Below are positions 1,527 through 63,678 of a stretch of DNA of 64,000 nt, one piece after another (the first letter of the stretch is position 1; the number at the start of each line of letters is the position of its first letter). A program made the position numbers and the translations under genes. The DNA is taken from positions 65,825-129,824 of the forward strand of contig JAJDCR010000015.1 of the NCBI GenBank assembly GCA_029260735.1. The letters run 5' to 3'. The notes under the pieces were generated by a model. The model was not told the origin of the DNA. It made no database searches and saw only the letters and a list, made by a program, of their open reading frames with translations. Source of the stretch: Planctomycetota bacterium (GTDB taxonomy: Bacteria > Planctomycetota > Uabimicrobiia > Uabimicrobiales > Uabimicrobiaceae).

Positions 1527-1636
1527 AGGATGTGTTTTCATTCAGCTATTTCACGACTTAGCAATACTGAGTTCAAGGTAATTTCCTTACTATTGCTAAA
1601 AAAATACAACAAATTAAGCTGAATGAAGACACATCC
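1527..1636 (+). repeat. ~110-bp small element with 20-bp terminal inverted repeats (copy 1)
   Basis: GGATGTGTTTTCATTCAGCT at 1529-1548 pairs with AGCTGAATGAAGACACATCC at 1617-1636. The 68-bp core is ~85-90% identical to the core of the copy at 53480-53590 in opposite orientation. Confidence 0.7.
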
Positions 1637-1739: not shown

Positions 1740-3824
1740 ATGAAGGATGATTTAATGAGTGTTGCCTTGGTTATAATTAGTGGTTGCCAAAAAAGAGAGG
1801 TAATCATCCTCCGCGAGGGGGACAAAATTGCTATCGGGCGAGATCCGGAATGTGATTTCCAGCTCTCTGATGCAAGTGTTTCTCGTAAACACTGTTACAT
1901 CTCACACTCTAATGGAAATACGTGGGTAGAAGATGCTGATAGTATGAACGGTATTTTTATCAACGAAGAACCCGTCAAAAAAGGATCGATTATCCCAGGG
2001 AATATTATAAAAATAGGTTCTGTTCATCTCAAACTAAAAGGTAGCCTCCAGCCTCGCGAGGTAATCGAAAAAACCAAACGCATTAAAAACGAGAAGCAAA
2101 CTTTTCGAGCTATTCATACCAAAAAAAGAAGTGATACAACTTTTGCCATAGATGTCTCTCCCCTCATTCTTCAGCGCAACTTAATTCTTTTGCATGACAC
2201 TGTGAAACTTATCCAACAAAGAACCAGTGTTCCTGAGTTACTTAGCGCTGTTTTAGAAACTCTCCTAAGCAAATTCCTTGTCGAACGAGGATGTTTTGTT
2301 TTAAAGGTCAACAATGAAGAAATAACGTCTGACTTCATCTATCGAACTAGAATAGAAAAAGACGGTGAAGAGTACTTCTCCGATGAAACTTTCTCCATTA
2401 ACTATGTTGTCCTTAACCAAGTTTTAAACCAAGGAGAAGGGCTTATCGGAGAAGGGATCTTGTGCGAAAACGAAAGTAGAGCTCATTCTAATCTCTTTTC
2501 CATTATTTGTGTTCCTATTGATGTTCATAATGGAATTCAAGGAGCGGTCTACCTGGAATCTCATCAAGGCGGACGTGGTTTTCGAAAAGAAGATCTAGAT
2601 CTTATTACCGCAGTAAGTCGTCAAGTAGGATTTGCCGTAGAAAAAACTCTTTTAGTCGAAAAAATAGCAGCTTCTGAACAACGTTTTAGAAATATTTACC
2701 AGTCTATCGTAGAAAACTATACCGATCTCCTCTATCGGCGCAATGCCGATCGCTCTTTTGCCATAATAAGCCCTTCAGTAGAGAGTTTTTTGGGAGTTTC
2801 TTTGGAAATTCTTTGGGAAAATCATAAAATTTGGGATAACTGCATTTATCCAGAAGATCGAAAGTTTGTCCTAAAAGAACAAGAGCAAGTATTCCAAGGT
2901 AAACACCTTTGTTTAGAATATCGAATGATTAAAGGTAATGGAGAAATTATCTGGGTAGAAGAAACCAGCTATCCGATTCGAAACAAAGCCAATCAAATAA
3001 CTTGTATGCAAGCAACAGTTAAAGACATCACTGAACGGAAAAAAAGTACTATTGAGTTGAAAAAATCTAATGAACAGCTGAAAAAATTTGCTAAGTTAGT
3101 TACTCATGATCTAAAGGAACCTCTTCGCAAGATCATTATGTTCGGGGATATTTTTAATAAAAAATATCTTAGTATTCTAGACGAAAAGGGCGTAGAGTAT
3201 GCAAAAAGAACTGTAAACGCTGCTCATACAATGCTGAATCTTTTAGAGAACCTTCGTAAGTATATTGATATACTAGTAACCCCTTGCCGAATCAGCCAAG
3301 TTGACTTACATGTTGTGGCTAACAAAGTAAAACAAGAGTTAGCTCCTCAAATATCTGAACTCAAGGGGGAGATGGAGATAGGGGAACTTCAAGTCATTGA
3401 AGCGGATCCTCAAAGAATTGCCCAAATGATCTACCATTTGGTTAAGAACTCATTAAAATATTCTAGTGATAAACCTCCTTTTGTAAAAATTTACAGTACC
3501 CTAGAGACTCAAAATGTTAGCGGTGAAATTTTTCATAATTGCCAAGTTTGCAAGATTTTTGTAGAAGATAATGGTGTCGGAATTGAAGAAAGGCACACAG
3601 CTCGCATCTTTGAGTTATGCAAAAAACTTCAATTTAGCCAGAGTGAAGTAGGAATAGGCTTAGCTGTATGTCAGAAAATTGCAGAGCAACATAGAGGTAG
3701 TATTGAGGTAAAAAGTAAGCCAGGACAAGGCTCCGTGTTTATAGTATCCTTGCCATTCCAAAAAAGACCACAACAGCAACAAGAAACAAAGGAAATTTTC
3801 CAAGTAAAAAGAGAAGTCAGGTAA
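1740..3824 (+). CDS. FHA-GAF-PAS sensor histidine kinase
   Basis: N-terminal FHA motif (GRDPECDFQL...SRKHCYI...NGIFIN), then GAF and PAS segments, a HisKA H-box (LVTHDLKEPLRKI) and an HATPase_c G-boxes (DNGVGIEE...GIGLAVCQKIAEQHRGSIEVKSKPGQGSVF). Confidence 0.8.
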   Translation: MKDDLMSVALVIISGCQKREVIILREGDKIAIGRDPECDFQLSDASVSRKHCYISHSNGNTWVEDADSMNGIFINEEPVKKGSIIPGNIIKIGSVHLKLKGSLQPREVIEKTKRIKNEKQTFRAIHTKKRSDTTFAIDVSPLILQRNLILLHDTVKLIQQRTSVPELLSAVLETLLSKFLVERGCFVLKVNNEEITSDFIYRTRIEKDGEEYFSDETFSINYVVLNQVLNQGEGLIGEGILCENESRAHSNLFSIICVPIDVHNGIQGAVYLESHQGGRGFRKEDLDLITAVSRQVGFAVEKTLLVEKIAASEQRFRNIYQSIVENYTDLLYRRNADRSFAIISPSVESFLGVSLEILWENHKIWDNCIYPEDRKFVLKEQEQVFQGKHLCLEYRMIKGNGEIIWVEETSYPIRNKANQITCMQATVKDITERKKSTIELKKSNEQLKKFAKLVTHDLKEPLRKIIMFGDIFNKKYLSILDEKGVEYAKRTVNAAHTMLNLLENLRKYIDILVTPCRISQVDLHVVANKVKQELAPQISELKGEMEIGELQVIEADPQRIAQMIYHLVKNSLKYSSDKPPFVKIYSTLETQNVSGEIFHNCQVCKIFVEDNGVGIEERHTARIFELCKKLQFSQSEVGIGLAVCQKIAEQHRGSIEVKSKPGQGSVFIVSLPFQKRPQQQQETKEIFQVKREVR

Positions 3825-3956
3825 ACTTGGCATCCAAAAAGAGAAAAATAGTGTTGTTTTGTAAGAAAGTTCCCATGAAATTTTTTTTCACTATCTTTGC
3901 AAAACTTTTTCACTGGAAACCCCTTACTATTATTTAAACCTGTATGGAAAAATCTC

Positions 3957-5096
3957 ATGGACAAGGTTAATATATTATTTGTAAAAGAGACTTTAGGCGA
4001 TCAAGCAAAAGAATCTTTTTTTTCTCCAGAAGAAAATTCTTTTTCTCATCAAATAACATATGCTGAAAATATAGAGGATGCTTGCCATCTTTTAACATCA
4101 GAAGAACCCGACGTTATCTTAATAGATGCTCAACTCATTTTTAGCACAAAAGATGTAAAAAACATTATCAAAGCAGCTACAATAAAACCTGTTATTGTTT
4201 TGTCGCCTATTGAAAACGAAGATCTTGCGACGCGGTGTTTACGAGAAGGTGTCCAAGATTTTCTAGAACCAAGTGTTTTTAAGAATCCCTTACTTTTTCG
4301 AAAAGCTCTGATCTATGCCAAAGAACGTAAACAAGCAGAAAAAGAATTACAAATCCGTAACGAAAATTTGGAGAATAGTAATTGGGAGCTTAAGAGTTTT
4401 ACTTCCGCAGCATCTCATGATCTTCAGGAACCTCTTCGTAAAGTAAGAGCCTTTTGCGATATACTAGATAGAAGATTTTCTTCTAATATTCCTGAAGAAG
4501 CTCAGGATTATTTTGATCGCATTAAAAATGCGGCTGCTCGTATGCAAAGATTAATTCAAGACTTACTAACTCTCTCAAAAATCACGAATCAAAATAAACC
4601 GTTAACTTGTGTTGATTTAAATGACGTTGTTCAAGGCGTCTTGGGAGATTTAGAAATCAGGCTAAGAGAAACAGAAGGAACTGTTGAAGTTGGGGATTTA
4701 CCTCATATTGATGCCGATTTAGTCCAAATGAGACAACTCTTTCAAAATTTAATTGGCAATGCTTTAAAGTTTCACGAAAAAGGACAAAAAGCAAAAGTAG
4801 AAATTTTTTGCCGCCGAATAGAGGATGTTAAAGAAAATTCAGAGACTTTGAATAATTTTTGTGAGATTGTCGTTCAAGATCATGGTATTGGCTTCGATGA
4901 AAAATATAGAAGTCGTATTTTTATAGCTTTTGAACGTCTTCATAGCCGAGGCAAATATGAAGGAACAGGAGTAGGTTTAGCTATTTGTCGAAAAATTATT
5001 GAGCGTCATAATGGAAAAATAGAGGTCGAAAGTAAGCCGGGTGAAGGTGCCCGTTTTATTGTTTACCTACCTGTAAAGCATACTCGTACATCCTGA
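3957..5096 (+). CDS. Hybrid receiver (REC)-histidine kinase
   Basis: REC-like N-terminus (VILIDAQL...VIVLSP), HisKA H-box (ASHDLQEPLRKV) and HATPase_c (QDHGIGFDE...GTGVGLAICRKIIERHNGKIEVESKPGEGARF). The track start at 3897 is a TTG; the in-frame ATG at 3957 (MDKVNILFV) is the more plausible start. Confidence 0.75.
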   Translation: MDKVNILFVKETLGDQAKESFFSPEENSFSHQITYAENIEDACHLLTSEEPDVILIDAQLIFSTKDVKNIIKAATIKPVIVLSPIENEDLATRCLREGVQDFLEPSVFKNPLLFRKALIYAKERKQAEKELQIRNENLENSNWELKSFTSAASHDLQEPLRKVRAFCDILDRRFSSNIPEEAQDYFDRIKNAAARMQRLIQDLLTLSKITNQNKPLTCVDLNDVVQGVLGDLEIRLRETEGTVEVGDLPHIDADLVQMRQLFQNLIGNALKFHEKGQKAKVEIFCRRIEDVKENSETLNNFCEIVVQDHGIGFDEKYRSRIFIAFERLHSRGKYEGTGVGLAICRKIIERHNGKIEVESKPGEGARFIVYLPVKHTRTS

Positions 5097-11576: not shown

Positions 11577-11608
11577 ATCTGAAATTGTTATTAAGTACTA
11601 TATATGTT

Positions 11609-11700
11609 GGAGGGCGAGGCTCTTGCCGAGCAGGAGATGTGCCTTGCTCGGCAGTATGTTATCTTCGCACATCTCCTGCGCGGCAGGAGCCTTGCCCTCC
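11609..11700. repeat. GC-rich long imperfect hairpin (34-bp arms)
   Basis: GGAGGGCGAGGCTCTTGCCGAGCAGGAGATGTGC pairs with GCACATCTCCTGCGCGGCAGGAGCCTTGCCCTCC with 3 mismatches. It is ~65% GC in a ~38% GC background and generates several overlapping spurious ORFs on both strands. Confidence 0.6.
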
Positions 11701-11779
11701 ATCTTAGGTTTAAAATTAAAAATACACCGCGATACTACTCGCCAATTACCCTTCTTTATTATTCTAGAGGGAGCACTCC

Positions 11780-13171: not shown

Positions 13172-13275
13172 AACAGTAGCCAGAATTCTGAATCCAGTAG
13201 CCAGCATCGAACCCTGGCTTCGCTTCGGGGTAAAAAATGGAAGAAACTTTGAGCTTTTCGTAGCTCGTGAGTCGG

Positions 13276-13376
13276 TTCGTAATCTTAATCGTACTCGTAC
13301 TCGTAATCGTAATCGAAAAAAAAAGAAAAGATTACGATTACGATTTACGATTAAGATTACGAATCGAGTTACGATT
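13276..13376. repeat. Long hairpin built from CGTAAT/CGTACT hexamer repeats
   Basis: Arms TTCGTAATCTTAATCGTACTCGTACTCGTAATCGTAATCG and ATTACGATTACGATTTACGATTAAGATTACGAA around an A-rich loop. Its translation gives the spurious RLRLRVRV ORF. Confidence 0.6.
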
Positions 13377-19604: not shown

Positions 19605-20302
19605 TTGAATAAAGATAAAGACAAAAAGAAAAAAGGCAAAGGGAAACCAAGGAACAAGCATGACCTTGGCTACAAACAATTGCTCTCCTTCATTGAAATG
19701 TTTCGCCAATTAATCCAAGGCTATACCGATGAAGATTGGAAGGAAAAACTCGACTACTCAAGAGCACAGCGCGTCGATAAAGAGTATGTTTTACCGGACT
19801 TTAAGGAAAAAGAATCGGATATCGTTTACAAAGTCCCTTTAATAGACAAGGAAAAAAACGAAAAGGAAATTTTTTTGTTTGTCTTGATTGAGCACCAGTC
19901 TACTGTTGATCATTCTATCGCTTTTCGTTTACTTTTCTACTTAACTCATGTTTGGTATGATATGAGCTGTGGAAAACCTTTATGCAGTGGGTCGTTCGCT
20001 TTTTTCAGGATCGAAATGATCCTTCCAACAAAGACATAATTGACGATTTTGATTTCGAAAACAAAAATAAAGAGGAGATTACTACCATGATCGAAACTTT
20101 ACCTGGTCGACTGGTTGAACAAGGTTTCGTTAAAGGCTTGGCAAAAGGAGAGGTTTTAGGCTTGCTTAAAGGTATGAATATTATTTATCCTGGAATTATT
20201 GAAAAATATAAAGAGAGAGTTGATAATGCTCAAGCTGAAGCAGAATTTCAATCTCTCGAAAAAGAAATTCTCCAAGATATAGAGTCTCGCAAGAAAGACT
20301 AA
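19605..20302 (+). pseudogene. Degraded Rpn/YhgA-family (PD-(D/E)XK, Transposase_31-like) recombination-promoting nuclease gene
   Basis: HDLGYKQLL N-motif and LIEHQSTVD (compare Rpn LLEHQSTPD). The gene is split by a frameshift into ORFs 19605-20039 and 19982-20302. The C-terminal GxxxG repeats (VEQGFVKGLAKGEVLGLLKG) are Rpn-like. The total length (~232 aa) is shorter than intact Rpn proteins (~300 aa). Confidence 0.65.
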
Positions 20303-22153: not shown

Positions 22154-23677
22154 TCAAGGCCCAATAATAATTTCCAGTCTACGAATCCAGTATTGACTTT
22201 GGGCAGAAAAATCCATCGCAATGGCAATATCGTTACGTCCTTGGATCAAAAAAGACTCGAGGGGAAACTCTTCTTCGACAAAACCCATATCTCCTACACT
22301 ATACTTTTCCTTGAAAACTTTACCGTTAATGAGGATCGTAATCGGAGAATACCCCTGCTTGCCACCTACGGCAGCCGTTAAGTGATTAAAGCGTAAGAAT
22401 GCTCTAGGAGGAACGTGGGGAAGGGTAAACCCCAAATGAAGCCGAGACCCTTGGTTAAAAGCTAAACATTTAAAATCAGGATGGCTCGCTAAAGCTTGAT
22501 TTCCGATAACTTGCATATTCTCAAGAAGAGGCTGATTTTCTTGCCATTTAAAACTAGCCCATGTACCAACAGGGAACACAACTTCTTTTGTCTCATCTAT
22601 TGCTTGATCTATGGGAGGTGTTTTTTTTATTAAAGAAGAGTTCTCTGTTGAGGAGACTTCTGTTTTCGACTTAGGAGGAAACTGAGAAGCAGAAATTTTA
22701 ATTTGCGAAAGATAAAAACCAATAAAAAGGAAAGCTAAGACAGAGGCATTAATGATCAGAATCGTTTTATTTCTCTCTAGATTTAAATACAAAGTTATCC
22801 ACCAAGGACGAGGCTTTGCGATAATTGATTTACCTTCGATAAAACGTCGGATATCATCTTTCATTTCCCGAGCACTTTGATAGCGACGTTCTCGGCTTTT
22901 CTCCAATGCTTTCAGAATAATAACTTCGACATCCTGAGGGATTTTTCGGTTGAAATGACTTGGTTTAAGAGGGTTTTTTTTGAATATTTGAGTGATTACT
23001 TCGGCAGCACTACTTCCTCGAAAAGGAGTTTGCCCTGCCAGTACTTCATAAAGCATCGCCCCCAAAGAGTAAACATCGGAACGCTCGTCAATCTTACGAA
23101 TAGCTCCATTTGCTTGTTCAGGCGGCATGTAAGCGACTGTTCCCATAATGGTACCTGTACGCGTCATTCGAGTTTGATTACGTGTGCTCTTTGCTAGGCC
23201 AAAATCCATAATAATAGGGTTGCCCCTTTTATCGATCATTATGTTAGAAGGTTTCAAATCTCGATGGATCACTCCCTGACTATGCGAATAAGAAATGCCA
23301 TCCGCAATTTGCTCAAACATATTCAGTGCTTTTTTAACCGGAAATTGCTTCTTTTTTATGAGACTAGAAAGGGGAGAACCTTCCACAAAGTCCATTGTAA
23401 AATAATGTCGGTTGTCGATTTCCCCGGCATCGTAAAGAGAAACAATGTTGGGGTGACGTAATTTAGCCGTGGCTGCTATTTCACGAGAAAAACGTTGGAC
23501 AGAATCTTTATTGCGCGATGCTTCTCCTAGCATAATCTTAATGGCAATACTACGGGAGGTCTGAGGATCAAATGCTTTATAGACAACCCCCATTCCTCCG
23601 CGTCCTAATTCTTCTTGAATCTCATATCGACCAAAGCGATTATTAGAAGAACCAGGGTGGGCTGCTGTAGTTTTCAT
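22154..23677 (-). CDS. Ser/Thr protein kinase with single TM and ~200-aa extracytoplasmic C-terminal domain
   Basis: Hanks motifs GRGGMGVVYKA, AIKIM, HRDLKPSNIMI, DFGLAK and APE, followed by a TM helix (ILIINASVLAFLFIGFYL). Confidence 0.85.
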   Translation of the reverse strand: MKTTAAHPGSSNNRFGRYEIQEELGRGGMGVVYKAFDPQTSRSIAIKIMLGEASRNKDSVQRFSREIAATAKLRHPNIVSLYDAGEIDNRHYFTMDFVEGSPLSSLIKKKQFPVKKALNMFEQIADGISYSHSQGVIHRDLKPSNIMIDKRGNPIIMDFGLAKSTRNQTRMTRTGTIMGTVAYMPPEQANGAIRKIDERSDVYSLGAMLYEVLAGQTPFRGSSAAEVITQIFKKNPLKPSHFNRKIPQDVEVIILKALEKSRERRYQSAREMKDDIRRFIEGKSIIAKPRPWWITLYLNLERNKTILIINASVLAFLFIGFYLSQIKISASQFPPKSKTEVSSTENSSLIKKTPPIDQAIDETKEVVFPVGTWASFKWQENQPLLENMQVIGNQALASHPDFKCLAFNQGSRLHLGFTLPHVPPRAFLRFNHLTAAVGGKQGYSPITILINGKVFKEKYSVGDMGFVEEEFPLESFLIQGRNDIAIAMDFSAQSQYWIRRLEIIIGP

Positions 23678-33000: not shown

Positions 33001-34203
33001 ATGTTTGGAAAATCATTCATCTCACTCCTTGTTTTTCTGGCTATAGGAGGACTTGTCGCAAACGAAGTCTCTTATCCTCAACAAGAAGTCGAAAAAATCT
33101 TCTCTGAACTTGTTGATGAAGATGCCCATGTGCGCGATAGTGCCACCGAAAGAATGGCCCTTTTGGGAAAAGTCGCATTCGACCATGTTGTCGAAAAATT
33201 TCCTCAAGTAAATTACCAAGTGCGACGACAAATTGTTACCATACTCGATAAAATACACACTCCCCAAGCATTAGATTTACTTTTTTTAGCTCTTCAAGAT
33301 CCCGACGAGGGAGTGAGAAACCGAGTAGCCTTGGCTTTACTTAATCTTTCGGAAAGCCCCGATAAAATTATCACACGCTTAGATGCGGTTGAAAATCCTC
33401 GCTCTGAAGTCCGCTCAACGATTCAAGATATAAAGAATAGTTTTCTTTACAAGTTTGTCGAAATAGAATTGGCCGAAGAAATTTCTCCCCAAGGAGGCTA
33501 TGGATTTTATGATGGGCAATTTGACAGCTTAAAAGAAGTAGGCGAAACAATCATCGCTCCTTTATCAGATATCTTTTGCAATGGAAACTATAGCTACATA
33601 CAAAAATCACTCAATGAAGGCCATCAATTAGAGAAACAATTCAAGATGAGAATGTTAGCAGGGCAAGCTCTCGGTGAATTGTCTGAAATAATGAGCAAAG
33701 GAAACAAACGAATGGTTATTCGTAGACTAAGAGGTTTAGCTTACAGCTCTCTTGGTGATGAAGAAATCCGCCGAATTGCCTCCTGTGCCCGCTATAAGCT
33801 CGGCGATAAGATTGAATTTGAAAGACAAGTAAAACAACATCTAAAAAATATTAGCCTAACCCAAACTCCAGACAGTTACCGCGAGCTCGCTATGCTCTAT
33901 CTTCGAGTCAACGAGTCGGAAAAGGGCATACTGTATTTAAAAATGTCGATTTCCCTCTGCCAACAGGCCGGTCTTGAGAATGAAGCAGGCCTAGACTACT
34001 ACAACCTAGCATGCGCTTACTCTTATATCAATAATATAGAGGAAGCCATCACTGCTCTCCTAAAAGCGGTTGATCTAAAGTATGAAGATGTTGAGTGGAT
34101 GAAGCAAGATGGAGATCTGCGCAACCTCCACGACGACCCTCGTTTTCAGGAGATTATTAAGAAGCTGGAGGAGAAAAAGGAGCTACTGAAGAGGAAGAAG
34201 TGA
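33001..34203 (+). CDS. Secreted HEAT (PBS-lyase-type)/TPR repeat protein
   Basis: Signal peptide (MFGKSFISLLVFLAIGGLVA). HEAT-like repeats (DEDAHVRDSATERMALLG...QVRRQIVTILDKI...DEGVRNRVALALLNL). C-terminal TPR-like helices. Confidence 0.6.
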   Translation: MFGKSFISLLVFLAIGGLVANEVSYPQQEVEKIFSELVDEDAHVRDSATERMALLGKVAFDHVVEKFPQVNYQVRRQIVTILDKIHTPQALDLLFLALQDPDEGVRNRVALALLNLSESPDKIITRLDAVENPRSEVRSTIQDIKNSFLYKFVEIELAEEISPQGGYGFYDGQFDSLKEVGETIIAPLSDIFCNGNYSYIQKSLNEGHQLEKQFKMRMLAGQALGELSEIMSKGNKRMVIRRLRGLAYSSLGDEEIRRIASCARYKLGDKIEFERQVKQHLKNISLTQTPDSYRELAMLYLRVNESEKGILYLKMSISLCQQAGLENEAGLDYYNLACAYSYINNIEEAITALLKAVDLKYEDVEWMKQDGDLRNLHDDPRFQEIIKKLEEKKELLKRKK

Positions 34204-34355
34204 CCGCTGATTAAACGGATTTTTCGGATTAATATGATTTTTGTTTGTGATTTTTGGATTGGTTGGGTGCGCTTCGCTTTTGATGAGTTTGCTTAATTGT
34301 CTGAACCGCTGATTTAACGGATTTTTCGGATTACGCTGATTTTTGTTCGTGGGAA
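34204..34355. repeat. Tandem ~50-bp direct repeat pair (102-bp period)
   Basis: CCGCTGATTAAACGGATTTTTCGGATTAATATGATTTTTGTTTGTG and CCGCTGATTTAACGGATTTTTCGGATTACGCTGATTTTTGTTCGTG, beginning immediately after the stop codon at 34203. Confidence 0.7.
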
Positions 34356-34474
34356 TCTAGGATTCTATACGCTGAAAACGTTACACATCAGCACAGGATA
34401 AAGTGAGCCAAAGTCAAATGGTATCCTGTGTCACTGTTGAAATAAGGATAGGTATTGGGATGTGACCCAAGAGA

Positions 34475-35220
34475 AAAAGTATCCCCGAAGGGGATTAACG
34501 TGAATAGCCCTGGGTTTCCAACCCAGGGGAAATTTAAGAACACCCCCACAGATCGCCCTGAAGGGGCGAAACATCTTTAGTGTCACCCCTTCAGGGTGAA
34601 TCTGAGACGAAATATATTTTCCCCTGGGTTAAAAACCCTTACTTTTATACACATAATTTTGTGAAACGAAAATTTGGTATTTTAAAATTTAAGAGTTTGT
34701 GTGATCGTTATACGTCATTACGTTAGGTTATCGAATACGTCGGAAACCCCGATGTTATCGGGACCTGACATATTACATCCCTCCGGGATACCAATTGTGC
34801 ATTGAGACAGGTTAGTTTTATTCTAAGCAAATATTATTTGCATTGAGTTTTAGTGGTATTAATCGCATCCAGAAATGTTTTATTATCGCGGATATTGTTA
34901 CGTCAGATTTCTCTTGGCGATGTGTCATTTACATGATTGTTTGATAATCACGTACAGCTACCTACGCTTAAACAAATCTAATGTGCCGCAATTATGCCAC
35001 TCGAACCTAACATTAATGGCATTTACTTAGAATAAAACTAACCTACCTTAATGCACAATTGGTATCCCGATAGGGATGTAATATGTCAGGCCCCGATAAC
35101 ATCGGGGTTTCCGACGTATTCGATAATCTAACGTAATCATACCAAGAAGTTAAACTTGTGTATAAGAGTAAGGGTTAAAAACCCAGGGCTATTCACGTTA
35201 ATCCCCTTCGGGGATACTTT
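34475..35220. repeat. ~745-bp foldback: nested near-perfect inverted repeat (arms ~230-300 bp, ~160-bp unique centre), no ORF
   Basis: 34475-34527 is the reverse complement of 35172-35220 (AAAGTATCCCCGAAGGGGATTAACGTGAATAGCCCTGGGTTT...). 34605-34654 matches 35150-35180. 34690-34832 is the reverse complement of 34993-35140 (..TACGTTAGGTTATCGAATACGTCGGAAACCCCGATGTTATCGGGACCTGACATATTACATCCCT..) with >90% identity. The left arm carries an extra 77-bp insert (34528-34604) that has its own 11-bp perfect hairpin. Confidence 0.8.
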
Positions 35221-35365
35221 TCAAAATTCTCTATTCTTATTTCAACAGCAGTTGAGCCAAAGTCCTCCAGGGAACACAGTACTTAGCACGGTTTTTAATA
35301 ATCTTTGTCAAAAACTATTTCAGATAAACCTCAGGGAACAACAGTCAAACTAAGGAGCAATCAAT

Positions 35366-36487
35366 TTGAAAAAAACGCTTGTCTATCTATTCTTCCTTTC
35401 TCTTTTATCCTCTCTCCTCTATGCCGACCTAGCTTCGCAATACGAGTCGGCTTATCGTTTAGCCCGCGATAAGGAGGCTCTGAATTTTTCAGACGCAACA
35501 GCGCAGGCTTGGAGTGAAGGTTTTTTGCTGAAAAAAGCGGTTTTTTCGGGAATCGGTTTGCTTGCACAGTATGAGGAAGCAAGTCAATTTGCTTTGGCTG
35601 AGGAAGGCTTGCGTTTGTCCTTGGAAGAAGCGGATCAGTGGGCGAAAAAACTGTTGATTTTGCGCGGGCAAATCGGGGCGGATGCTAGTTTAAGAGATGA
35701 GCTAAATCGTTTTCTAGAAGAAGTGTTTTTAGAGGAAGAAGAGGCTCTGGAGTGGTCTTTGGAGTTTTTTCAATCCGATGCTCCTCTTTATTCTCGCCAA
35801 GGGCTTCTAGAGCGATATACCGATGTCTACTCTTTTGCCCGTGAGAATATCTTTTTTTCTTTTACTCACGAAGAGGCCTTGAAATTAGCGAAAGACTTTA
35901 TCGGGCAACGATTCTACTTCCAACCAGGAATTCCTCTTTTAAGCCAGTATGTTCTCGCCTACAATTTTGCTTTTTCTTCTGAAGGACTGCGCATGACAGA
36001 TGAAGAGGCCCGTGCATGGGCAGAAGAATTTGTCTTAAGCCGAGGTGCTCTAAACCCTAGCCAGAACTTGGAAAATCAATTTCAAGATGCAGAGAATTTT
36101 GCCTTTGCCACAGGAGGCCTAGAAAAAAATAGAAACGAAGCTCGGGATTGGGCTGTTGTCTATATTCAGAAAAAAGGATTGCCTGATATTTCGATTAACC
36201 TCTTCCGACAATACCGCGAAGCCTACTTCTTTGCTTACAACGGACAGGTTCTTTCTCTCATTCGTAAAGTTAGAGATGCTCCGCCGGGCGTTTTTTTGAG
36301 CGATGAAGCAATGAAGTGGTCCCAAAAATTTATTGCCCAACGTTCCGAAATTAAGGGAGAAGAGGATCTTTTAGAGAAATACTTTCAGGCTCTTAATTTT
36401 GCTTACTCTAGCGAAGGCTTGAAGCTTGAAATAGAAGCGGCGCGGGCTTGGGCTATCGGTTTTTTAGAGAAGGAGGAAGTACGATGA
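35366..36487 (+). CDS. Secreted tandem-repeat protein (about six 40-45-aa repeats, motif QYxxAYxFAxxxEGLxxxxEEAxxWA)
   Basis: TTG start with a perfect TAAGGAG RBS 9 nt upstream. Signal peptide (LKKTLVYLFFLSLLSSLLYA). The repeat is visible by eye. The stop overlaps the next gene's ATG (ATGA). Confidence 0.6.
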   Translation: MKKTLVYLFFLSLLSSLLYADLASQYESAYRLARDKEALNFSDATAQAWSEGFLLKKAVFSGIGLLAQYEEASQFALAEEGLRLSLEEADQWAKKLLILRGQIGADASLRDELNRFLEEVFLEEEEALEWSLEFFQSDAPLYSRQGLLERYTDVYSFARENIFFSFTHEEALKLAKDFIGQRFYFQPGIPLLSQYVLAYNFAFSSEGLRMTDEEARAWAEEFVLSRGALNPSQNLENQFQDAENFAFATGGLEKNRNEARDWAVVYIQKKGLPDISINLFRQYREAYFFAYNGQVLSLIRKVRDAPPGVFLSDEAMKWSQKFIAQRSEIKGEEDLLEKYFQALNFAYSSEGLKLEIEAARAWAIGFLEKEEVR

Positions 36488-39448: not shown

Positions 39449-42400
39449 CTAATTTTCTTGCATCAGCTCTTCATTAAAGGGAGAGGCATCCCAAACTCGA
39501 ATTGTCTGATCATAACTCGTTGAAATAATTTTATAACCATCTGGAGAAAAAATGCAAGAGGTAACTCTATCTAAATGACCATCCAAAGTCAATATAGCTG
39601 TTTTTTCTTCTCGTGGAGTATTATTAGTGGCATCCCAAATTTTTATTTTATCGTCCATACTACCTGTCGCAACGCGTCTTCCATTGGGGCTAAAAGAGCA
39701 GCATAAAAGATTGCGGGTGTGACCAATAAAACGAGTAATGATTTCTTGCTTTTGGACATCCCATAAAAGTAAAGAATCCAAAGTTCCTTCAGAAGCAGAG
39801 ATTAATTTTTTACCATCTGGACTAAATTCTATTTGATTGACAGGATATTTATTGCCTTGTAAAACACCTTGAACTTTATCTGCTTCTAAATTGTAAAGAT
39901 ATATACGAGAGTCTTCTCCTGATGCAGCTAAAATTTTGCTGTTAGGATGAAAAGCACAAGTATTAACATCTGCTCGGTGTTGGTATTTTTTGATAATTTT
40001 TCCTGTTTGCACTTCTCTTATGATGACTTGATTATCTTTTCCCGCTGAGGCTAAGAGCTGTCCATCAGGGCTAAAAGTACAAGTCAAGATTTGTCCGGTA
40101 TGCTCTGACCATTTATGTAATATTTTTCCTGTTTTTAAGCTCCATATACCAAGAGTTCTATCATTGCCTGCTGTGGCTAAAATAGAGTTCACCAGATTAA
40201 AATCCATTTGATTTACAGAAGAAAGATGCCCAGCAAAGGGTATAGTTTTAGGAGTTTTCTCAATAAAGTCTTTTCCCTCAGGAAAAGACCAAACCCTTAC
40301 TCCGAAATAGACTCGCGGGGAAGCTGCCAATATTTTACCATCGGAACTAATTCCACAGGAATATAAGACGCTTCCCTCCTTATGAAAAAGACTCGGGTGT
40401 TTTCTCTCTTTGGCCTTAATATTCCAGAGCTTGAGTCTGCCTGTTGCACTGACAGAAACAAGCTGTTCTCCTCTAGAAGTATAAACACAGCGATTTATTT
40501 TGCCGACATGCCCTCCCAAAATAGATGTAGGCTGAGGTTTCTTAATATTCCACAGATAAACATTGTGGTCGTAACCTCCAGAGGCAAAGGTTTCACTATC
40601 GGGAGAAAATACAACTGTCTTAACTTTATCGGAATGTCCCACGTATGTTCGAAGAAGCTTTCCTCTTTTATAATCCCAAAGTCGGATCGTTCGGTCATAA
40701 CTTCCTGAAAGTAAATATTTTCCATCAGGACTAAAAGAACAGCTTTCCACTTTTTCTCGATGGGCTTTCAAAATATGAACTAGTTGGTAGGTCTGAGCAT
40801 CCCAAAGGGCAATAAGAGCATTGTCTCCTGTTGTAGCAAAAAACTTTCCATCAGGACTAAAGACACAACTAAAAATGTTGCTATTCCAAGTTTGGTTGTT
40901 AACTGTTTTTAGTTTTTTAATAGTTTTACCTGTTTTGATATCCCAAACAAGAATAGACTCTTGATTAGGGATAAGAGTTTCATTGTCTCGCGCTTCATAG
41001 GTAGATAATATGCTTTTTCCATCAGGAGAGAAAAGGCAAGAGGTCACTGCTTTTTCAAAAGTTAGAATTTTTTCTGCTTGTCCTGTTTGTACATTCCATA
41101 AAATGATTTTTCCATCAGCTCCTCCTGTCGCTAATAGCGTTCCATTGAGATTAAAGTCACAGCTAGTTACCTTTTGAGAGTGACCTTTAAACACTTGAAC
41201 GATTTTTTCTTTAACTAAATCAAAGAGTATAACTTCATTCATCATACAAACGGCAACAATGTTGCTCTCTGGCTTCATTTTACACTCATCAGGGTGACCT
41301 CGAAGAAGCCAACTCTTATCTTCATAATGAATCCGTCGTTGAATCCAGTTCCATTCCCAATCTCGAAGATCATTTTGATGTTTTTCCAAGTGCTCAAGGA
41401 GATTAAGAGCATCTAAGGTTTTATTTTCGTCAGCGTATTTGTTTGCTAAGATAATATTCGCATAGTAGGCCGAGTCAGAAGCTTCTTTCCGGGCCTGCTC
41501 TTCTTTTCGGAGAGCTTTTTCTTTCTCCTCTATCGCGATTAAAGTAATTTGTCTCTCATCTTCTACTTTTTGCTTTTCTCGCTCTACGTTTTTCTTTTCT
41601 TCCTTTACTTTTTCTCTTTCTATTTCGGCCACTCTTTGGGCTTCAACAGCAACATTTCTTTCATGTTGAATTCCCAGAATAAAGAGAGTTAGACTAAGGG
41701 AAAAAACCATTAAAGCAATTGCTATAACCAAAGATATATTTCGATTGCGAATAAGCCATTTTTTTATTTTTGTCGATGTTGTGGGAGGTTTTGCTTTGAT
41801 CGGTTTGTTGTCTAAATAGTTTTGGAGTTCTTTGCTTAAAGACCTGGCACTGGAATAGCGTTTTTCTGGTTTTTTCTCTAGACATTTTAGGCAAATGGCT
41901 TCCAGTTCTTTAGGAATGTCGGGGTTAAGAAGAGAAGGAGAGACAGGTTCTTCTCCGTAAACCTGCCGCAAAATATTTAAATATGTTTCCCCTTGAAAAG
42001 GACCACGCCCGGTTAACACTTCATAAAGAGTTGCTCCCAGAGAATAAACATCTGCTCGATGATCCACATTTCCATCCGCTTGTTCAGGGGGCATATAAGC
42101 AGGAGTTCCCATCATACCACCGGTTTGAGAGAGTTTTTCATCGCTATCAGTAATTTTTACTAGCCCAAAATCCATAATCTTAGGCTCATTCTCTTTTGTT
42201 AGCATAATATTTGAAGGCTTAATATCTCGGTGAATAATGCCATTTTCATGGGCAAGATGAAGAGCATCGCAGCATTTTTGGATAATTTTAACAAAGAGAG
42301 AAAGCTTTAATTTTTTCTCTCGGATAGCATTAGAGAGTGTTCCTCCCACAATATGCTCCATTGTGAAGTAGTTTTGGGGTTCGCTTCCTACTTCATAAAC

Positions 42401-42952
42401 TTCCACAATATTCGGATGTCTTAATTGAGCGGTGGCTTTTGCTTCTCTCAAAAAACGTTTAATTTGTATAGGATGCAAATTTCCTTCCGATAAAACCACT
42501 TTCAAAGCAACAGTTCTCTCCAGCTTAGTATCATAAACCTGATAAACCGCTCCCATTCCTCCACGACCTAATTCTTTTTCGATTCGATAATGAGCAAACA
42601 TTCCCATTGTTTGAACTTTTTGATGTGAGGAGATGTGAATAACTCCTTGGCACTTTTCACAAGTAATCGTATTGCCTGGAGTATTTTCTTTCGGGAGAAA
42701 ATAGATTTCTGAGCAAGAGGGACAAGTAAATATATGTAAGCTCATTTTTTCAAATATTTCACTCATCTTTTGATTACTAGCATACCCCTTTGATACTAAG
42801 ATAGAACTTAAGTTTGCACTTCTCCCTGTTTTTTCAACCTTGTCCAGTATTTGCATGCACTCTTGAACATGTTCTCCTTTGATTAACTTATAATCAATAA
42901 GTACACTGGAAAGGAGCTTGTCTTTTTGTGATGCCATAGGGCGTGTCCTCAT
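39449..42952 (-). CDS. Ser/Thr protein kinase - TM - coiled coil - WD40 beta-propeller protein
   Basis: Cys-rich N-terminus (CPSCSE...CEKCQG), Hanks motifs (LGRGGMGAVYQ, ALKVV, HRDIKPSNIML, DFGLVK, PPE), a TM helix, an EK-rich coiled coil and >12 WD40 repeats (GH...WD/WN). The true start is probably the second Met (42937, MASQKDK), because the first codons lie inside the repeated motif at 42938-42958. Confidence 0.9.
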   Translation of the reverse strand: MRTRPMASQKDKLLSSVLIDYKLIKGEHVQECMQILDKVEKTGRSANLSSILVSKGYASNQKMSEIFEKMSLHIFTCPSCSEIYFLPKENTPGNTITCEKCQGVIHISSHQKVQTMGMFAHYRIEKELGRGGMGAVYQVYDTKLERTVALKVVLSEGNLHPIQIKRFLREAKATAQLRHPNIVEVYEVGSEPQNYFTMEHIVGGTLSNAIREKKLKLSLFVKIIQKCCDALHLAHENGIIHRDIKPSNIMLTKENEPKIMDFGLVKITDSDEKLSQTGGMMGTPAYMPPEQADGNVDHRADVYSLGATLYEVLTGRGPFQGETYLNILRQVYGEEPVSPSLLNPDIPKELEAICLKCLEKKPEKRYSSARSLSKELQNYLDNKPIKAKPPTTSTKIKKWLIRNRNISLVIAIALMVFSLSLTLFILGIQHERNVAVEAQRVAEIEREKVKEEKKNVEREKQKVEDERQITLIAIEEKEKALRKEEQARKEASDSAYYANIILANKYADENKTLDALNLLEHLEKHQNDLRDWEWNWIQRRIHYEDKSWLLRGHPDECKMKPESNIVAVCMMNEVILFDLVKEKIVQVFKGHSQKVTSCDFNLNGTLLATGGADGKIILWNVQTGQAEKILTFEKAVTSCLFSPDGKSILSTYEARDNETLIPNQESILVWDIKTGKTIKKLKTVNNQTWNSNIFSCVFSPDGKFFATTGDNALIALWDAQTYQLVHILKAHREKVESCSFSPDGKYLLSGSYDRTIRLWDYKRGKLLRTYVGHSDKVKTVVFSPDSETFASGGYDHNVYLWNIKKPQPTSILGGHVGKINRCVYTSRGEQLVSVSATGRLKLWNIKAKERKHPSLFHKEGSVLYSCGISSDGKILAASPRVYFGVRVWSFPEGKDFIEKTPKTIPFAGHLSSVNQMDFNLVNSILATAGNDRTLGIWSLKTGKILHKWSEHTGQILTCTFSPDGQLLASAGKDNQVIIREVQTGKIIKKYQHRADVNTCAFHPNSKILAASGEDSRIYLYNLEADKVQGVLQGNKYPVNQIEFSPDGKKLISASEGTLDSLLLWDVQKQEIITRFIGHTRNLLCCSFSPNGRRVATGSMDDKIKIWDATNNTPREEKTAILTLDGHLDRVTSCIFSPDGYKIISTSYDQTIRVWDASPFNEELMQEN

Positions 42953-42958
42953 TCAGCT
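42938..42958 (+). repeat. Solo copy of the small-element terminal motif AGGGCGTGTCCTCATTCAGCT
   Basis: Matches the left TIR of the element at 53480-53500 with one mismatch, and the following ~25 nt (TTTTTTTACTTTTTTTAG) also resemble the element core. An inverted partner AGGACACGCCCT lies at 43730-43741. Confidence 0.6.
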
Positions 42959-43129
42959 TTTTTTTACTTTTTTTACTTTTTTTAGAAAATTTGGGGAAAA
43001 ATTTCTTTCCTATTGCCATCCCAAAATGAAAAGATTATGATATATTTTCACAAAATTGATAAAATCAAGGAAACTCAGCTTTCATGAGAATGATAGCAGT
43101 AGGTTCTAGGTTCCTTTAAGGTTTGCCTT

Positions 43130-43729
43130 ATGTATGAGTATAGTTATGCCATCCAAGATGTTTTGGATAATGTGGGCCAAATTGAAAAAATTGTATGGGA
43201 CATAAAAGAGGGGACTTTTCCCTTGTCTTTTTTTGATGAACAAGAAAATGTTGTTGATCTTTTTCCTGTGGATTGTGAAGGGGAATGCGTAGAATCATTG
43301 AGTTTGGATGATCAGCTGACACTCATTGAGCAAAATATAGAAGTTATGTCATTTATTCCCCCAGAAGATCCGCTAGAGTTGCGCCTAGTGATTGAAAGAG
43401 GGGCCTGTCAAATAGTCCATTATTTGGCTTTGCAACAAGACCTTCGTGAGCTCTTTCAGCTGAATCAGTTTATAGAAGAGAATGAACTAAGCTTTTTAGA
43501 CTTGGTTTCATCTATGTTTTCTTCTTCTGAATTTATCAATTATGCTCAGGTCGAAGTGACAAATAATTGCACTCTCTATCAATATCAAAGAAAACAGAAT
43601 CAAGAAAAGTTTGAAATCTATAAATATCGCTTACGCAATAGTCATCTTTATTTTGAAAATTTTAAAAATAAAGAATCATCCTCTAAAAAGGTTTTATCTC
43701 CCCCCAAAAAAATAGTTATTATAAATTAG
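43130..43729 (+). CDS. Hypothetical protein (199 aa), no recognisable domain
   Basis: ATG start and coding-like composition. It lies within the 42938-43741 segment bounded by the inverted 12-mers. Confidence 0.45.
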   Translation: MYEYSYAIQDVLDNVGQIEKIVWDIKEGTFPLSFFDEQENVVDLFPVDCEGECVESLSLDDQLTLIEQNIEVMSFIPPEDPLELRLVIERGACQIVHYLALQQDLRELFQLNQFIEENELSFLDLVSSMFSSSEFINYAQVEVTNNCTLYQYQRKQNQEKFEIYKYRLRNSHLYFENFKNKESSSKKVLSPPKKIVIIN

Positions 43730-43768
43730 GACACGCCCTAGTATCAGAGTTGAAATTTGCTTCCTATC

Positions 43769-46700
43769 TTATCTTCTTTTACGAAAACGCGATGTTACTA
43801 CTCCTGTCGCTTCGTCTTTGGACATATTTAGCATAACAAGAGCGGCCTCAATATCCTTTTTGTCAAAAGATTGTAAAGCATAAGAAGAGAAAATTTTCTC
43901 TTCTTTTTCTTCCTCTGTTAAACCCCATAGTTTTTTCCGATTTGCCATCCCCAAAAGAATAGGTAGTGCTTTAGTATCACCAATTTCACCAAGGGTTCGA
44001 CAACAAGCCCTTTTTGCACTTAAACTGCTAGTTGTTTCCAGAGTTTGAATGATACTTTCTGTTGCTTCTGCGCATTTTATCTTGCCCGCCATCATAACCA
44101 TTCTTCGCTGGATATTTTCAGGGATTTTTCTCTTTAAAGTTCGAATACAAATAGGATATTGCTGAGCTGGTTTCCACCCTTCTATTATAGACATAATATT
44201 GTTTTGGATATCAAGGTTCGGGCTAGAGAGGAGTATTTCATAAAACTTTTCTTGCTTTTCTGTCAGATCTTCTAGTACATCCAGAAGTCTATTAATAACT
44301 GCAGCATCTTGCTTTGGATGTATCAATCCATCCAGTTTTTCATCGACATTTCCTTGCCAACTCCTAAGTAGTTTTGCCAGGGTTTTTCTTTCTTCTTGAT
44401 TTGTATTTTTCTGAATCTCATCTAGAAGAATAGAAGAGGATCTCTCACCTAAAGTTTCTAAAATATCATGAGAAAAAGCTTTTTGGGCTTTATCCGAAGA
44501 GAAAAGATCTTGAGCAATTTGATTAAACTCTACTTCTTCTATGAGCTCATCTAAGGTTTCGTTAATGCCCACACCTAGATCACTTCGATCTCTTTGTTTA
44601 ATTAAACCTCGTAGAAGATCATGTGCTTTCTCGAATTCTTTTTCTCTATAGAGGTTTGTTAGAGAGTATTTGGCTATATCCAACAGCTTTTGGTGAACGG
44701 TTAGGTCTGGTTCAAGAGATAGAGCTCTTTGTAATTCAATGTTAAGAGAAACCAGTAAGAGGTTTTTTACATCATGAGGAAGTCTTTGTTTAAGCTCTGA
44801 AAGTAACTCACAAACTTGGAAGCGAACTCCTGCGATCTTGGAACGTAAATTGCTTGATATTTTTGTGACCAAAGTTTGAAATTCAGTTTGATCTTGCTTC
44901 TGCAGAGTGATCATAAGTTCTTCCATTCCTTCAACCATATCAGGATTAAACAGTTCCTCTTCGTCCATTCGCATAACCAAGTTGAGTTTTTCAGCTAAAT
45001 CCAATTCCACCCATGATTTTTCATCTCCTCCAGCTAATTCTTCTATTTCTAATTCTGGTTCCATTAGCTCTTGGATTTGCATCTCTTTGTATTCTTGGTT
45101 ATTGATGATAATATTATTGGTTTTGTGACGTTGGATAAAATCAGGCCAATAGTTTTCATCTTTTTCTGCATTAGCTGGTTGAGCTAATTGATGAGAAAAA
45201 TCGAGTAACTCTTGTAAAGAAACTTCTTTACGTAATGTACAACTGTGAATATTTTGAGTATTAAAAATACGCTGTATCACAAAAATTTGATTTCCAAAGA
45301 TATGTGGGTTCGCCATATAATTCTCGACAAGAAAGTCATTGTTAGCAATGGCAAAGCTTACTTTTTCTCGCTTTTGGAAAAAAGAATCCAGCGCCTTGGT
45401 TAAAAGCTCCACAGAAAAATTGAGAAGTTTGCTTTGAGAGGGATAGAGTTGAATGTTCTCAACAGAAGCGCAGAGATAACGAATTATGTCTCGCACTAGC
45501 CGAATACTTTCTTCTCCTAAAGTATCGTCCTCAAAAGACATCTCATCAGAAGCCTGTTCTAAGTCTCCCGAAGCTTGCTTGTTAGAAACATACACTTTTT
45601 GTAAAATATCAACAGATTTAATTTCTGCTTCATCTAAGAACTCAGTCCAGTAGTCAGGATTAAGAACAATTTTTTGTCCAGGCTCACCTAAAGCCCTCAT
45701 AATTTTTTCTAGCTCATAGCTCTCAATGTTAGCATCTAAAGTCATACTGGAAATATAGTGTCCTCGTAGTAGCTGATAAAACTCTCTCACAATGGGTGTA
45801 TCTTTTTCTAACTCTGCGTTATTCAAAAGGAGATACTTGTCTTCTATCTTAGTTATAAACCCCGTTAAGTTTTTCCAAGTTTTCTCCATACTTTTGTGAA
45901 GAGCCTTCACAGAGCTAGTGATTAAACTACTTCCTTCTGGGTATCTTTGAACTTGTTGTACTGATAAGGTAAAACTGTGCATCCACGACTTTAGATCCGA
46001 AATATCATTTTCGCTAAGCTCTACAGATTCAACAAATACTCTTTTCATACGACGGTTCAAATTCCCATTAAACATGTCCAGGTCTTCATCAGGCTCAAAA
46101 AGCTTTCTGCGTTCTTTTTCCCGCTTAGTAACCTGTGGATCTAAAGGAGAATTACCATAGCGAGATGATCGGTTGAGATGATGAGTTAAACCATGGCCTT
46201 CCCGACCGTCTCCTACCTTGTAGCGATTCATGAGTTGACTAACTTTTTCATGTACTCGACTTCGCATACTTTCATCAGCAATCTCATAGTAAATAAGATT
46301 CTGAAAGCTACTTTGTTTAAATCGAAAAACATCTTCCTCCGTTTCTTCGACTAAACCTAGTTGCTTTGCTTCTTCTATGAATTGACGTACTTGATCACCG
46401 GAGTATTCACTCGTTTCTTCTAGATAGTTAAAAGAAAAAGGATCTCCGATAACAGCAGCTTGCTGAATAAGAAGAGAAGATTCGCTTTGAAACTCTTTCA
46501 CTAGTTCTAAAATTAATTCTTCTAAACTGGCGGGAAGATCACCTTCTTCTATATCAAAAAACCATATCTCGCCTTTTTTTATTAGTTTTTCTCGATAGTA
46601 AAGAAGAGTTAAAGCATTTTCAATATAAGAAGCATTTCCTTGAGATAAGTCGTTTAAGATCCGAACTGTTTCAAGTGGATCGTAATCTTCTAAAACAGTA

Positions 46701-53013: not shown

Positions 53014-53463
53014 CTAGCTCTTATTTTCGTCTGAAGATTCTTCAAACTCAATTTCTTCAATAGCTGGCTCTAAACGCCCAAACATTCTTTTGAGCGGAGG
53101 TTGTTCAAAAAATTCCGTCAGTTTTATTAAGTTTCCTGAAAATTCATCGATAACATCCACTGATTTGGCTACTTGGACTTCCATCTCTTGAATTCTTTGC
53201 AAAAGATTGCGCACAGAAGTCTCCACCATAGTCATTTTATCATTTATTTGCTTTTCTTTTTGTTGAACTTCTTTAATTCTCTCGTCACTTTTTTTGATGC
53301 TATCGCGAATTTCTTCCAAATAGCTTATCATATCTTCCAAAGCATCTGTTTGGGAAAAATTCTCGACAATTTTAGCAACCGCTTCTTGAAGTACAGCTCG
53401 GGTTCCTTGATCTACAAAGCCAGCGTATTCAGCTTCGTTACCATGCATTTTTTCCGTGTTCAT
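53014..53463 (-). CDS. Small coiled-coil hypothetical protein
   Basis: 149 aa with heptad-rich sequence (EVQQKEKQINDKMTMVETSVRNLLQRIQEMEVQ) and no known motif. Confidence 0.5.
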   Translation of the reverse strand: MNTEKMHGNEAEYAGFVDQGTRAVLQEAVAKIVENFSQTDALEDMISYLEEIRDSIKKSDERIKEVQQKEKQINDKMTMVETSVRNLLQRIQEMEVQVAKSVDVIDEFSGNLIKLTEFFEQPPLKRMFGRLEPAIEEIEFEESSDENKS

Positions 53464-53479
53464 ATTTTCTCCTGTAATT

Positions 53480-53590
53480 AGGGCATGTCCTCATTCAGCT
53501 TATTTTTTGTATTTTTTTAGCAATAGTAAGGAAACTGCCTTGAACTCAGTATTGTTAAGTCGTGAGATGGGCTGAATGAGGACACGCCCT
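53480..53590 (-). repeat. ~110-bp small element with 20-bp terminal inverted repeats (copy 2, opposite orientation to copy 1)
   Basis: AGGGCATGTCCTCATTCAGCT at 53480-53500 pairs with AGCTGAATGAGGACACGCCCT (as reverse complement) at 53570-53590. The reverse complement of its core (TCACGACTTAACAATACTGAGTTCAAGGCAGTTTCCTTACTATTGCTAAAAAAATACAA) is near-identical to the core of copy 1. Its right end abuts the stop codon of the dynamin-like gene. Confidence 0.7.
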
Positions 53591-63519: not shown

Positions 63520-63678
63520 CATTGAAGAAGAAAAGAAGCTCACGCAAAGACGCAAAGATCGCAAAGAAGAATATAAAATAATATTCCTGTTAATGAAATG
63601 AAACTTCTCCCTATTTATCTTTGTATTTATTCTTTGCGATCTTTGCGTCTTTGCGTGAGCTTCTTTTCTTCTTCAATG
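63520..63678. repeat. Very long near-perfect hairpin (~47-bp arms, ~54-nt loop)
   Basis: CATTGAAGAAGAAAAGAAGCTCACGCAAAGACGCAAAGATCGCAAAGAAGAATA pairs with TATTCTTTGCGATCTTTGCGTCTTTGCGTGAGCTTCTTTTCTTCTTCAATG with a single 3-nt indel. Confidence 0.8.

Follow-up and report, generated by a model that had tools for sequence, protein, structure and literature searches.

The question raised by this locus is what kind of element lies behind a short intergenic repeat with inverted ends that occurs twice, 52 kb apart, in the window (that is, the whole 64,000-nucleotide stretch of planctomycete DNA analyzed here) and is also represented there by a half copy and a decayed end. The original prediction had left several options side by side, namely a MITE-like element, a REP-like element, or a small structured RNA gene. 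Our analyses confirm that the repeat family is real and suggest that its members are probably MITEs, each with a 109-bp non-coding body bounded by terminal inverted repeats (TIRs) of ~20 bp and lying between TAs, which would be moved in trans.

A repeat family defined by its terminal inverted repeats

The full copies and the TIR matches on which the family is based are as follows, the latter being those obtained with the 20-mer GGRYGTGTYYTCATTCAGCT at up to 3 mismatches.

1527-1637, + strand: copy 1, full 111-bp element with TIRs at 1527-1547 and 1617-1637
53480-53590, - strand: copy 2, full 111-bp element with TIRs at 53480-53500 and 53570-53590
1528-1547, + strand: TIR 20-mer match
1617-1636, - strand: TIR 20-mer match
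42939-42958, + strand: TIR 20-mer match
53481-53500, + strand: TIR 20-mer match
53570-53589, - strand: TIR 20-mer match

These are the only five matches in the window, as compared with 0.05 expected from dinucleotide shuffles, and five or more were reached in 0 of 100 such shuffles; the two-copy inverted-repeat family that had been predicted is therefore present in the sequence. Its dimensions had been given as ~110 bp with 20-bp TIRs, and these need a slight revision, because both copies measure 111 bp and the TIR spans 21 nt (AGGG...AGCT, consensus AGGGCGTGTCCTCATTCAGCT), or 22 nt with the flanking T/A counted. The consensus is matched exactly at 42938-42958, and the arms at 53480-53500 and 53570-53590 differ from it by one substitution each. 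Both ends of copy 1 carry the variant AGGATGTGT(T/C)TTCATTCAGCT, and those of copy 2 are of the type AGGGC(G/A)TGTCCTCATTCAGC(C/T). The inner part of the TIR, TCATTCAGC, is invariant in all five window TIRs, and within each full copy the two arms are complementary at 20 of 21 positions. In terms of composition, the TIRs (57% GC in copy 2) surround cores of only 28-30% GC, as compared with 38.4% for the window, and such GC-rich TIRs around an AT-rich core would fit ends that are held by protein recognition.

As had been predicted, copy 2 is inverted relative to copy 1, and it has the same orientation when read on the - strand. The body of copy 1 comprises 109 bp (GGA...TCC), with GA on its left and TA on its right, and the AT-rich cores are 69 bp long in each copy. 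The interiors of the two copies are 92.6% identical over 81 nt with one indel (BLASTN, E 1e-25) and 93% identical over an ungapped stretch of 67 nt, so that a shared core of ~68 bp was correctly anticipated, but its identity, put at ~85-90%, had been underestimated. The predicted internal palindrome TTAGCAATA/TATTGCTAA was also found in the copies. The coding capacity of the elements is nil, with only spurious frames of 56-70 aa crossing them. Folding had been proposed as a way to check the prediction, and both copies proved strongly hairpin-forming: as RNA, each copy forms one long hairpin on either strand (-39 to -52 kcal/mol), with z scores of -6.5 to -9.2 against shuffles, none of which was as stable.

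It is of note that the TIRs are less alike between copies 1 and 2 than the cores are. Three TIR positions have changed on both arms together (G-C to A-T, C-G to T-A, and C-G to T-A), and two further positions have changed on one arm only, all of these changes replacing GC by AT and thereby following the composition of the host. Concerted changes of this kind would be unusual for simple decay after insertion, because independent decay would not be mirrored on both arms. With two sequences to compare, they might reflect two master subfamilies with symmetric ends, as known for RUP subtypes (see below), conversion between arms in an extruded hairpin, or selection for pairing.

Genomic context and a reconstructed insertion site

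Copy 1 is located 85 nt 3' of a TOBE-domain ORF (1016-1441) and 102 nt 5' of a gene encoding an FHA-GAF-PAS histidine kinase (1740-3824), both on the + strand, and copy 2 is found between a dynamin-like GTPase gene (53589-56282) and a gene for a 149-aa coiled-coil protein, both on the - strand. If the half element described below is included, the three window loci are all oriented in the sense direction of their neighbors, being placed either between co-oriented genes or ahead of them. The two full copies had been described as neighboring signaling genes, which applies to copy 1 with its histidine kinase but not to copy 2, between the dynamin-like GTPase and the coiled-coil gene; such adjacency is in any case uninformative, because the window is full of kinases.

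Copy 2 is flanked by TA on both sides (53479-53480 and 53590-53591), as is the locus of the half element, and the flanks of copy 1 are GA and TA. With regard to a target-site duplication, which had been suggested as a check, the flanks at copy 2 and at the half-element locus would fit a duplicated TA, those of copy 1 are not alike, and no longer duplication is consistent across the copies. A 2-bp duplication of this sort is indistinguishable from a TIR beginning with TAGGG, because TA is itself palindromic. A longer target duplication was also considered, since TTACAG occurs on both sides of copy 2, but the two occurrences are offset by 3 nt and none alike was found elsewhere, and they were treated as chance.

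The position of copy 2 relative to its neighbors is informative in this respect. The dynamin-like GTPase gene ends in the TAG at 53589-53591 (- strand), a stop codon that consists of the flanking TA and the first G of the element, and 16 nt separate the other end of the element from the ATG with which the 149-aa gene begins (53461-53463). When copy 2 and one TA are deleted in silico, the sequence reads ...GGT TTA CAG TAA ttacAGGAGaaaat ATG AAC..., so that the rebuilt junction, CAG TAA TTACAGGAG, contains a TAA stop, then 14 nt with AGGAG, and then the ATG, and would be read as an ordinary tight, coupled operon junction. Such a clean rebuilt site supports insertion into a TA, after which the TAA would have become TAG. 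Of all the evidence for insertion into a TA, this stop-codon reconstruction is the strongest single item, and it concerns a reconstructed site rather than an observed empty site.

A half element and a decayed end between two kinase genes

The third locus of the family lies between the two full copies and comprises the following features.

42938-42999, - strand: partial element, with an intact 21-bp TIR (42938-42958) and ~40 nt of A-rich interior; TA at 42937-42938
43719-43739, - strand: decayed TIR end, matching at 16 of 21 positions, with the outer 13 nt exact and then TA
43130-43729, + strand: 199-aa acidic ORF between these two ends and between two kinase genes, on the opposite strand to the kinase genes

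The TIR at 42938-42958 had been predicted to recur there on its own. It is present, but not alone, because ~40-60 nt of A-rich interior beside it are matched by the profile of both copies (42999-42938, - strand, E 5e-5) and are similar to the right-hand portion of the full-length elements. The TA that flanks this TIR at 42937-42938 overlaps the ATG of a kinase-WD40 gene (42935-42937, - strand), and inside the TIR are a second in-frame ATG (42950-42952) and the motif GAGGA, 8 nt upstream of the kinase-WD40 start. An overlap with both the start codon and the promoter of this gene had been proposed; the start codon is indeed abutted or overlapped by the element, but the promoter part of the proposal is not supported.

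The decayed end is directed toward the TIR at 42938, from which it is ~0.8 kb away, and it contains the stop codon of the 199-aa ORF. An inverted partner of 12 bp had been placed at 43730-43741, and such a partner exists, although with another extent, namely a 13-nt exact match at 43728-43740 and a match of 16/21 over 43719-43739. At up to 5 mismatches to the TIR, only family members are recovered in the window, with 0.017-0.16 matches expected by chance.

Two facing ends with an ORF between them might suggest a composite transposon (42937-43740) with the 199-aa ORF as its transposase. This candidate was rejected, as the protein, which is acidic, belongs to no Pfam family, occurs on a single contig in each source, and has, besides a near-identical copy, only nine remote matches. 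In a word-index protein search, the 199-aa ORF retrieved only itself and one relative of 89% identity. A HMMER search against 1.84 billion representative proteins gave 10 matches with E up to 0.001, i.e. a 92%-identical copy from the close relative and nine remote proteins, eight of which are 173-219 aa in length; no informative Pfam family was found in the 8 remote homologues that were checked. The 199-aa ORF is a bystander or a captured gene, not a transposase, and it belongs to a very rare protein family.

The close relative was available as the Logan assembly of run DRR328265, in which MutS is 97% identical to the window MutS. By comparison, Candidatus Uabimicrobium sp. HlEnr_7 and Planctomycetota related to it have a MutS that is 63-65% identical to that of the window, which places the source among the planctomycetes close to them. 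The MutS neighborhoods of Ca. Uabimicrobium sp. HlEnr_7 and of one ENA contig are not syntenic with the window. The comparison with the DRR328265 relative concerns the half-element locus, where both genomes share the ends, the contigs of the relative stopping short of copy 2. There, the DNA is ~94% identical, the TIR carries 2 substitutions, and the relic has decayed several positions further. The ends at this locus are thus old, inherited by descent, and drifting at about the neutral rate, and purifying selection is not evident.

The same terminal inverted repeat in other organisms

The 21-mer AGGRYRTGTYYTCATTCAGCY was scanned against 596 Gb of species-representative genomes and against JGI metagenomes, neither of which contains the source genome. 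These scans returned 5 and 9 stretches, as compared with ~17 expected by chance, and most of the matches were single chance matches, several of them in homologous coding sequence. True terminal inverted pairs were found only at one locus of Neisseria perflava (L002) and at two metagenome loci (L008 and L010), as listed below.

L002, Neisseria perflava NZ_JALJYC010000007.1, 3866-4026: 161-bp hairpin element
L008, JGI metagenome Ga0182021 (57% GC), 983-1036: first element, 54 bp consisting of TIR, 12 nt, and TIR, with TA/TA flanks
L008, 1497 to contig end: second element, ~260 bp, with its right TIR interrupted by the contig end and the other end TA-flanked
L010, 569: TA-flanked TIR end that shares 10 more inner bases

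One arm of the Neisseria element is identical at 21 of 21 positions to the window arm at 53570-53590, and its inverted partner, with 4 mismatches to the consensus, starts 140 nt away. The element has a folding energy of -54 kcal/mol (z -12.9) and inverted repeats that reach ~45 nt, has no TA flanks, and is located between divergent genes encoding a cytochrome c'-like protein and a short-chain dehydrogenase. Its identification as a Correia element was considered and rejected, as the Correia core motifs are absent, and we know of no earlier description of this hairpin element.

An inverted partner with up to 4 mismatches within 600 nt would be expected ~1e-3 times over the 14 loci. Scans of viral contigs served as a negative control, and no convincing inverted partner was seen for any of the other scan matches or for the 17 control matches from the two viral scans; the sole "partner" at 5 mismatches, on viral contig L023, was ~730 nt off and on the outer side. 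BLASTN of the elements against plasmids and phages returned nothing meaningful, and no paper containing the TIR sequence was found by full-text search.

The interiors of the window family, the Neisseria element, and the L008 elements are unrelated, and only the TIR is common to them. A conserved end combined with free interiors looks like a TIR that is recognized by a transposase and speaks against the interior as the part that is functional in the different lineages. The stop-codon arrangement seen at copy 2 also occurs in the metagenome contig, where the TAG stop of an upstream ORF is formed by the flanking TA and the first G of the element at L008 982-984 and at L008 1496-1498, as in the window at 53589-53591. 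The pattern is thus found in 3 of about six well-defined insertions, and the TA of a stop codon may just be a harmless target.

Comparison with known systems and alternative explanations

The repeat unit of pneumococcus (RUP) duplicates TA, and RUP subtypes have different ends, as do copies 1 and 2 here. RUP is a 107-bp MITE of Streptococcus pneumoniae that is thought to be moved by IS630-Spn1, and it resembles the window elements in size (107 bp versus 109-111 bp), in having TIRs, in being non-coding, and in its base-paired fold (PMC3049150). It differs from them in that there is no sequence similarity and in that its host is known to carry a partner IS whose TIRs match. Correia elements (CREE) are ~105 or 155 bp long, have inverted repeats, are usually found at TA, have no known transposase, and lie 5' of many genes (PMC2649163), and their inverted repeats form a hairpin in mRNA that is bound or cleaved by RNase III (PMC2649163; PMC10969869). 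They are similar to the window elements in being small, bounded by inverted repeats, and usually located at TA, and they provide a model for a co-transcribed copy in this genome. On the other hand, the window elements have other TIR and core sequences, do not contain the CREE core ends CCGGTACGG and TCAGGACAA, and show neither a detectable IHF site nor a detectable outward promoter.

The reading that the elements are MITEs has to be weighed against a REPIN-like or TIR repeat that would be moved by an HUH (IS200/IS605-type) RAYT or TIRYT via a single-stranded hairpin and without target duplication. A REP unit is a palindrome of 20-40 bp tagged GTAG (or CGTC) at one end, and RAYT-like genes with long TIRs and moderately abundant TIR repeat families have been reported, many in Rhodopirellula baltica; likewise, REPINs and TIR repeats consist of inverted short units with a spacer, form a long hairpin, occur as singles, are located outside genes or downstream of coding regions, and have been reported in Planctomycetes (PMC3733652). 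The layout of the window elements, two inverted ~21-nt units ~69 nt apart in one long hairpin, is like that of a REP doublet, "solo" ends exist in the window, and the TA could belong to the repeat instead of a duplication. However, the 21-nt unit is not self-palindromic but pairs with the other unit across a distance of 69 nt, and a conserved tag is missing, as GTAG is present at 1 of 6 ends (TTAG, ATAG, CTAG, or TGAG at the others) and CGTC is absent; this speaks against the REP-like option of the original prediction. The GGGGWSAS motif, reported for several RAYT-associated TIRs, is also absent, there is no Y1 transposase among the 17 window ORFs scanned with Pfam, and the rebuilt site of copy 2 fits a 2-bp TA duplication. 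Taken together, we regard movement by a tyrosine transposase as quite unlikely. A functional structured RNA, i.e. a small RNA gene or an intercistronic processing or stability hairpin kept for that role, would account for the very stable fold, for the three stem pairs changed on both sides, for a core (93%) that is more conserved than the TIRs, and for the sense orientation at 3 of 3 loci. Yet the covariation carries little weight with two sequences only, the agreement in orientation would arise by chance in 1 of 8 cases, other organisms share the TIR and not the interior, and the truncated copy at the half-element locus is drifting at about the neutral rate in the DRR328265 relative. Strand-specific G-U pairing gave contradictory indications, as the two one-sided TIR changes give G-U on the sense strand, but a one-sided change in the 9-bp inner stem favors the opposite strand. 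No Rfam family was matched at the gathering threshold in the window or in L002, L008, L010, and L016, so that the match to a known riboswitch or sRNA family, named in the original prediction as a reason for reclassification, was not found; the best relaxed matches were to generic hairpin models, with 16-22 bits against thresholds of 45-230 (22 bits versus 65). Neither a sigma-70-type promoter nor an intrinsic terminator consensus was found in or beside the elements, and the copies are inside apparent operons, so that the small-RNA-gene option is not supported and we consider conservation for an RNA role to be very unlikely.

Another explanation would be a palindromic site for a regulatory protein, with half-sites TCATTCAGC/GCTGAATGA, ahead of regulated genes. 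At each of the three loci, a gene does start 0-102 nt downstream of the right-hand end, and the invariance of the inner TIR in the window would be in keeping with such a site, but the half-site spacing is 69 nt here and ranges from 12 to ~230 nt elsewhere, a binding site leaves the conserved interior unexplained, the neighboring genes have no functional link, and copy 2 is inside an operon junction rather than at a promoter; this explanation is highly improbable. Other candidates that were set aside are a hammerhead-like CUGAUGA in the TIR, which has the wrong spacing and nothing in Rfam, and an integron attC site, as the ends have no GTTRRRY core.

Proposed mode of mobility and implications

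The MITE-like option is the one favored by the evidence, i.e. the TIRs, the small size, the lack of an ORF, the TA flanks, the clean rebuilt site, the truncated and decayed ends, and the unrelated interiors elsewhere. The elements show several generic properties of MITEs, being short and non-coding (111 bp), having TIRs, and occurring as several dispersed copies in the window, which also contains a decay series that runs from the intact copies to the half element (E 5e-5) and on to the 16/21 end. The window, the 36 fetched loci, and the plasmid and phage collections yielded neither a transposase nor a longer element with these TIRs, and among the 17 window ORFs compared with Pfam there was no transposase except a truncated YhgA-like ORF without a link to the TIRs. 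This 144-aa ORF (19605-20039) matches the first half only of a YhgA-like putative transposase family (PF04754, E 6e-16) and is probably a truncated gene.

Movement of a MITE family of this kind might proceed as follows. A transposase encoded elsewhere would bind the inner TIR TCATTCAGC and cut at the GGG termini; by analogy with RUP, the leading guess for this enzyme would be a DDE transposase of the IS630-like, TA-duplicating kind, with a tyrosine RAYT or TIRYT as the alternative. Insertion of the element would then take place at TA sites in gene-poor gaps; where such a site belongs to a TAA stop codon, the terminal G would regenerate TAG. Once inserted, the window elements are probably co-transcribed in the neighboring mRNAs, given the sense orientation of all three loci with respect to co-oriented genes. 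On the model of Correia elements, the transcribed 21-bp stem could then provide a double-stranded target of the RNase III type or a stabilizing hairpin, and at the half-element locus the end of the element may supply the sequence just upstream of the kinase-WD40 start, including the Shine-Dalgarno-like motif GAGGA.

From an evolutionary point of view, these are most likely an ordinary kind of genome parasite, notable only for a TIR that is common to Neisseria and to a metagenome organism. If this reading is correct, a MITE family would be added to a planctomycete lineage that has been little studied and is a relative of Candidatus Uabimicrobium, and three genes may be affected in their expression, through an operon junction with a 21-bp RNA stem, the leader of the histidine kinase gene, and the start region of the kinase-WD40 gene, respectively. 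The near base-for-base match of the TIR between the planctomycete and Neisseria would imply either recent horizontal spread or a very conservative interface between transposase and DNA, and the shared TIR would offer a handle for finding the enzyme; the current understanding of mobile DNA would be unchanged. A more far-reaching proposal, which we put forward as speculative and rather unlikely, is that the end TAGGG(C/T)GTGT(C/T)(C/T)TCATTCAGC marks a family of hairpin mini-elements that crosses phyla (Planctomycetota, Neisseria, and at least one other), has its own transposase not yet linked to it, habitually lands in the TA of stop codons with the TAG being rebuilt, and leaves copies that can be co-opted, for example as an intercistronic hairpin or as the ribosome-binding region of the kinase-WD40 gene.

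Other features of the window

Several other inverted repeats are present in the window. The region 34200-35300 is a stretch of 1.1 kb without ORFs, located between the ORFs at 33001-34203 and 35366-36487, in which nested long inverted repeats extend over 34475-35221 with arms of 66 nt (97%), 76 nt (79%), 50 nt (96%), and 32 nt (88%); it also contains many small GC-rich hairpins and a direct repeat of ~50 nt at 34200-34340, and gave no Rfam match at the gathering threshold. A near-perfect palindrome of 159 bp at 63520-63678, with 52-nt arms (98%) and a 55-nt spacer, is found just after an ORF ending at 63489 and is unrelated in sequence to the TIR family. Two further intergenic hairpins occur at 11603-11706 and 13265-13374, one being GC-rich with 40-nt arms (88%) and the other having 29-nt arms (90%). 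Long palindromes between genes, of several kinds that are unrelated to one another, seem to be abundant in this genome.

The window also contains three serine/threonine kinase genes (22154-23677, 39449-42952, and 43769-50191) whose kinase domains are 66-81% alike in DNA, a similarity at the DNA level that indicates three paralogues within 30 kb. The gene encoding a 2140-aa kinase carries in-frame tandem repeats at 47903-48106 (102 bp, 2 copies) and 48806-49150 (69 bp, ~5 copies), the 69-bp repeats encoding DPTMMISPPSKxDLxKLD peptide units.
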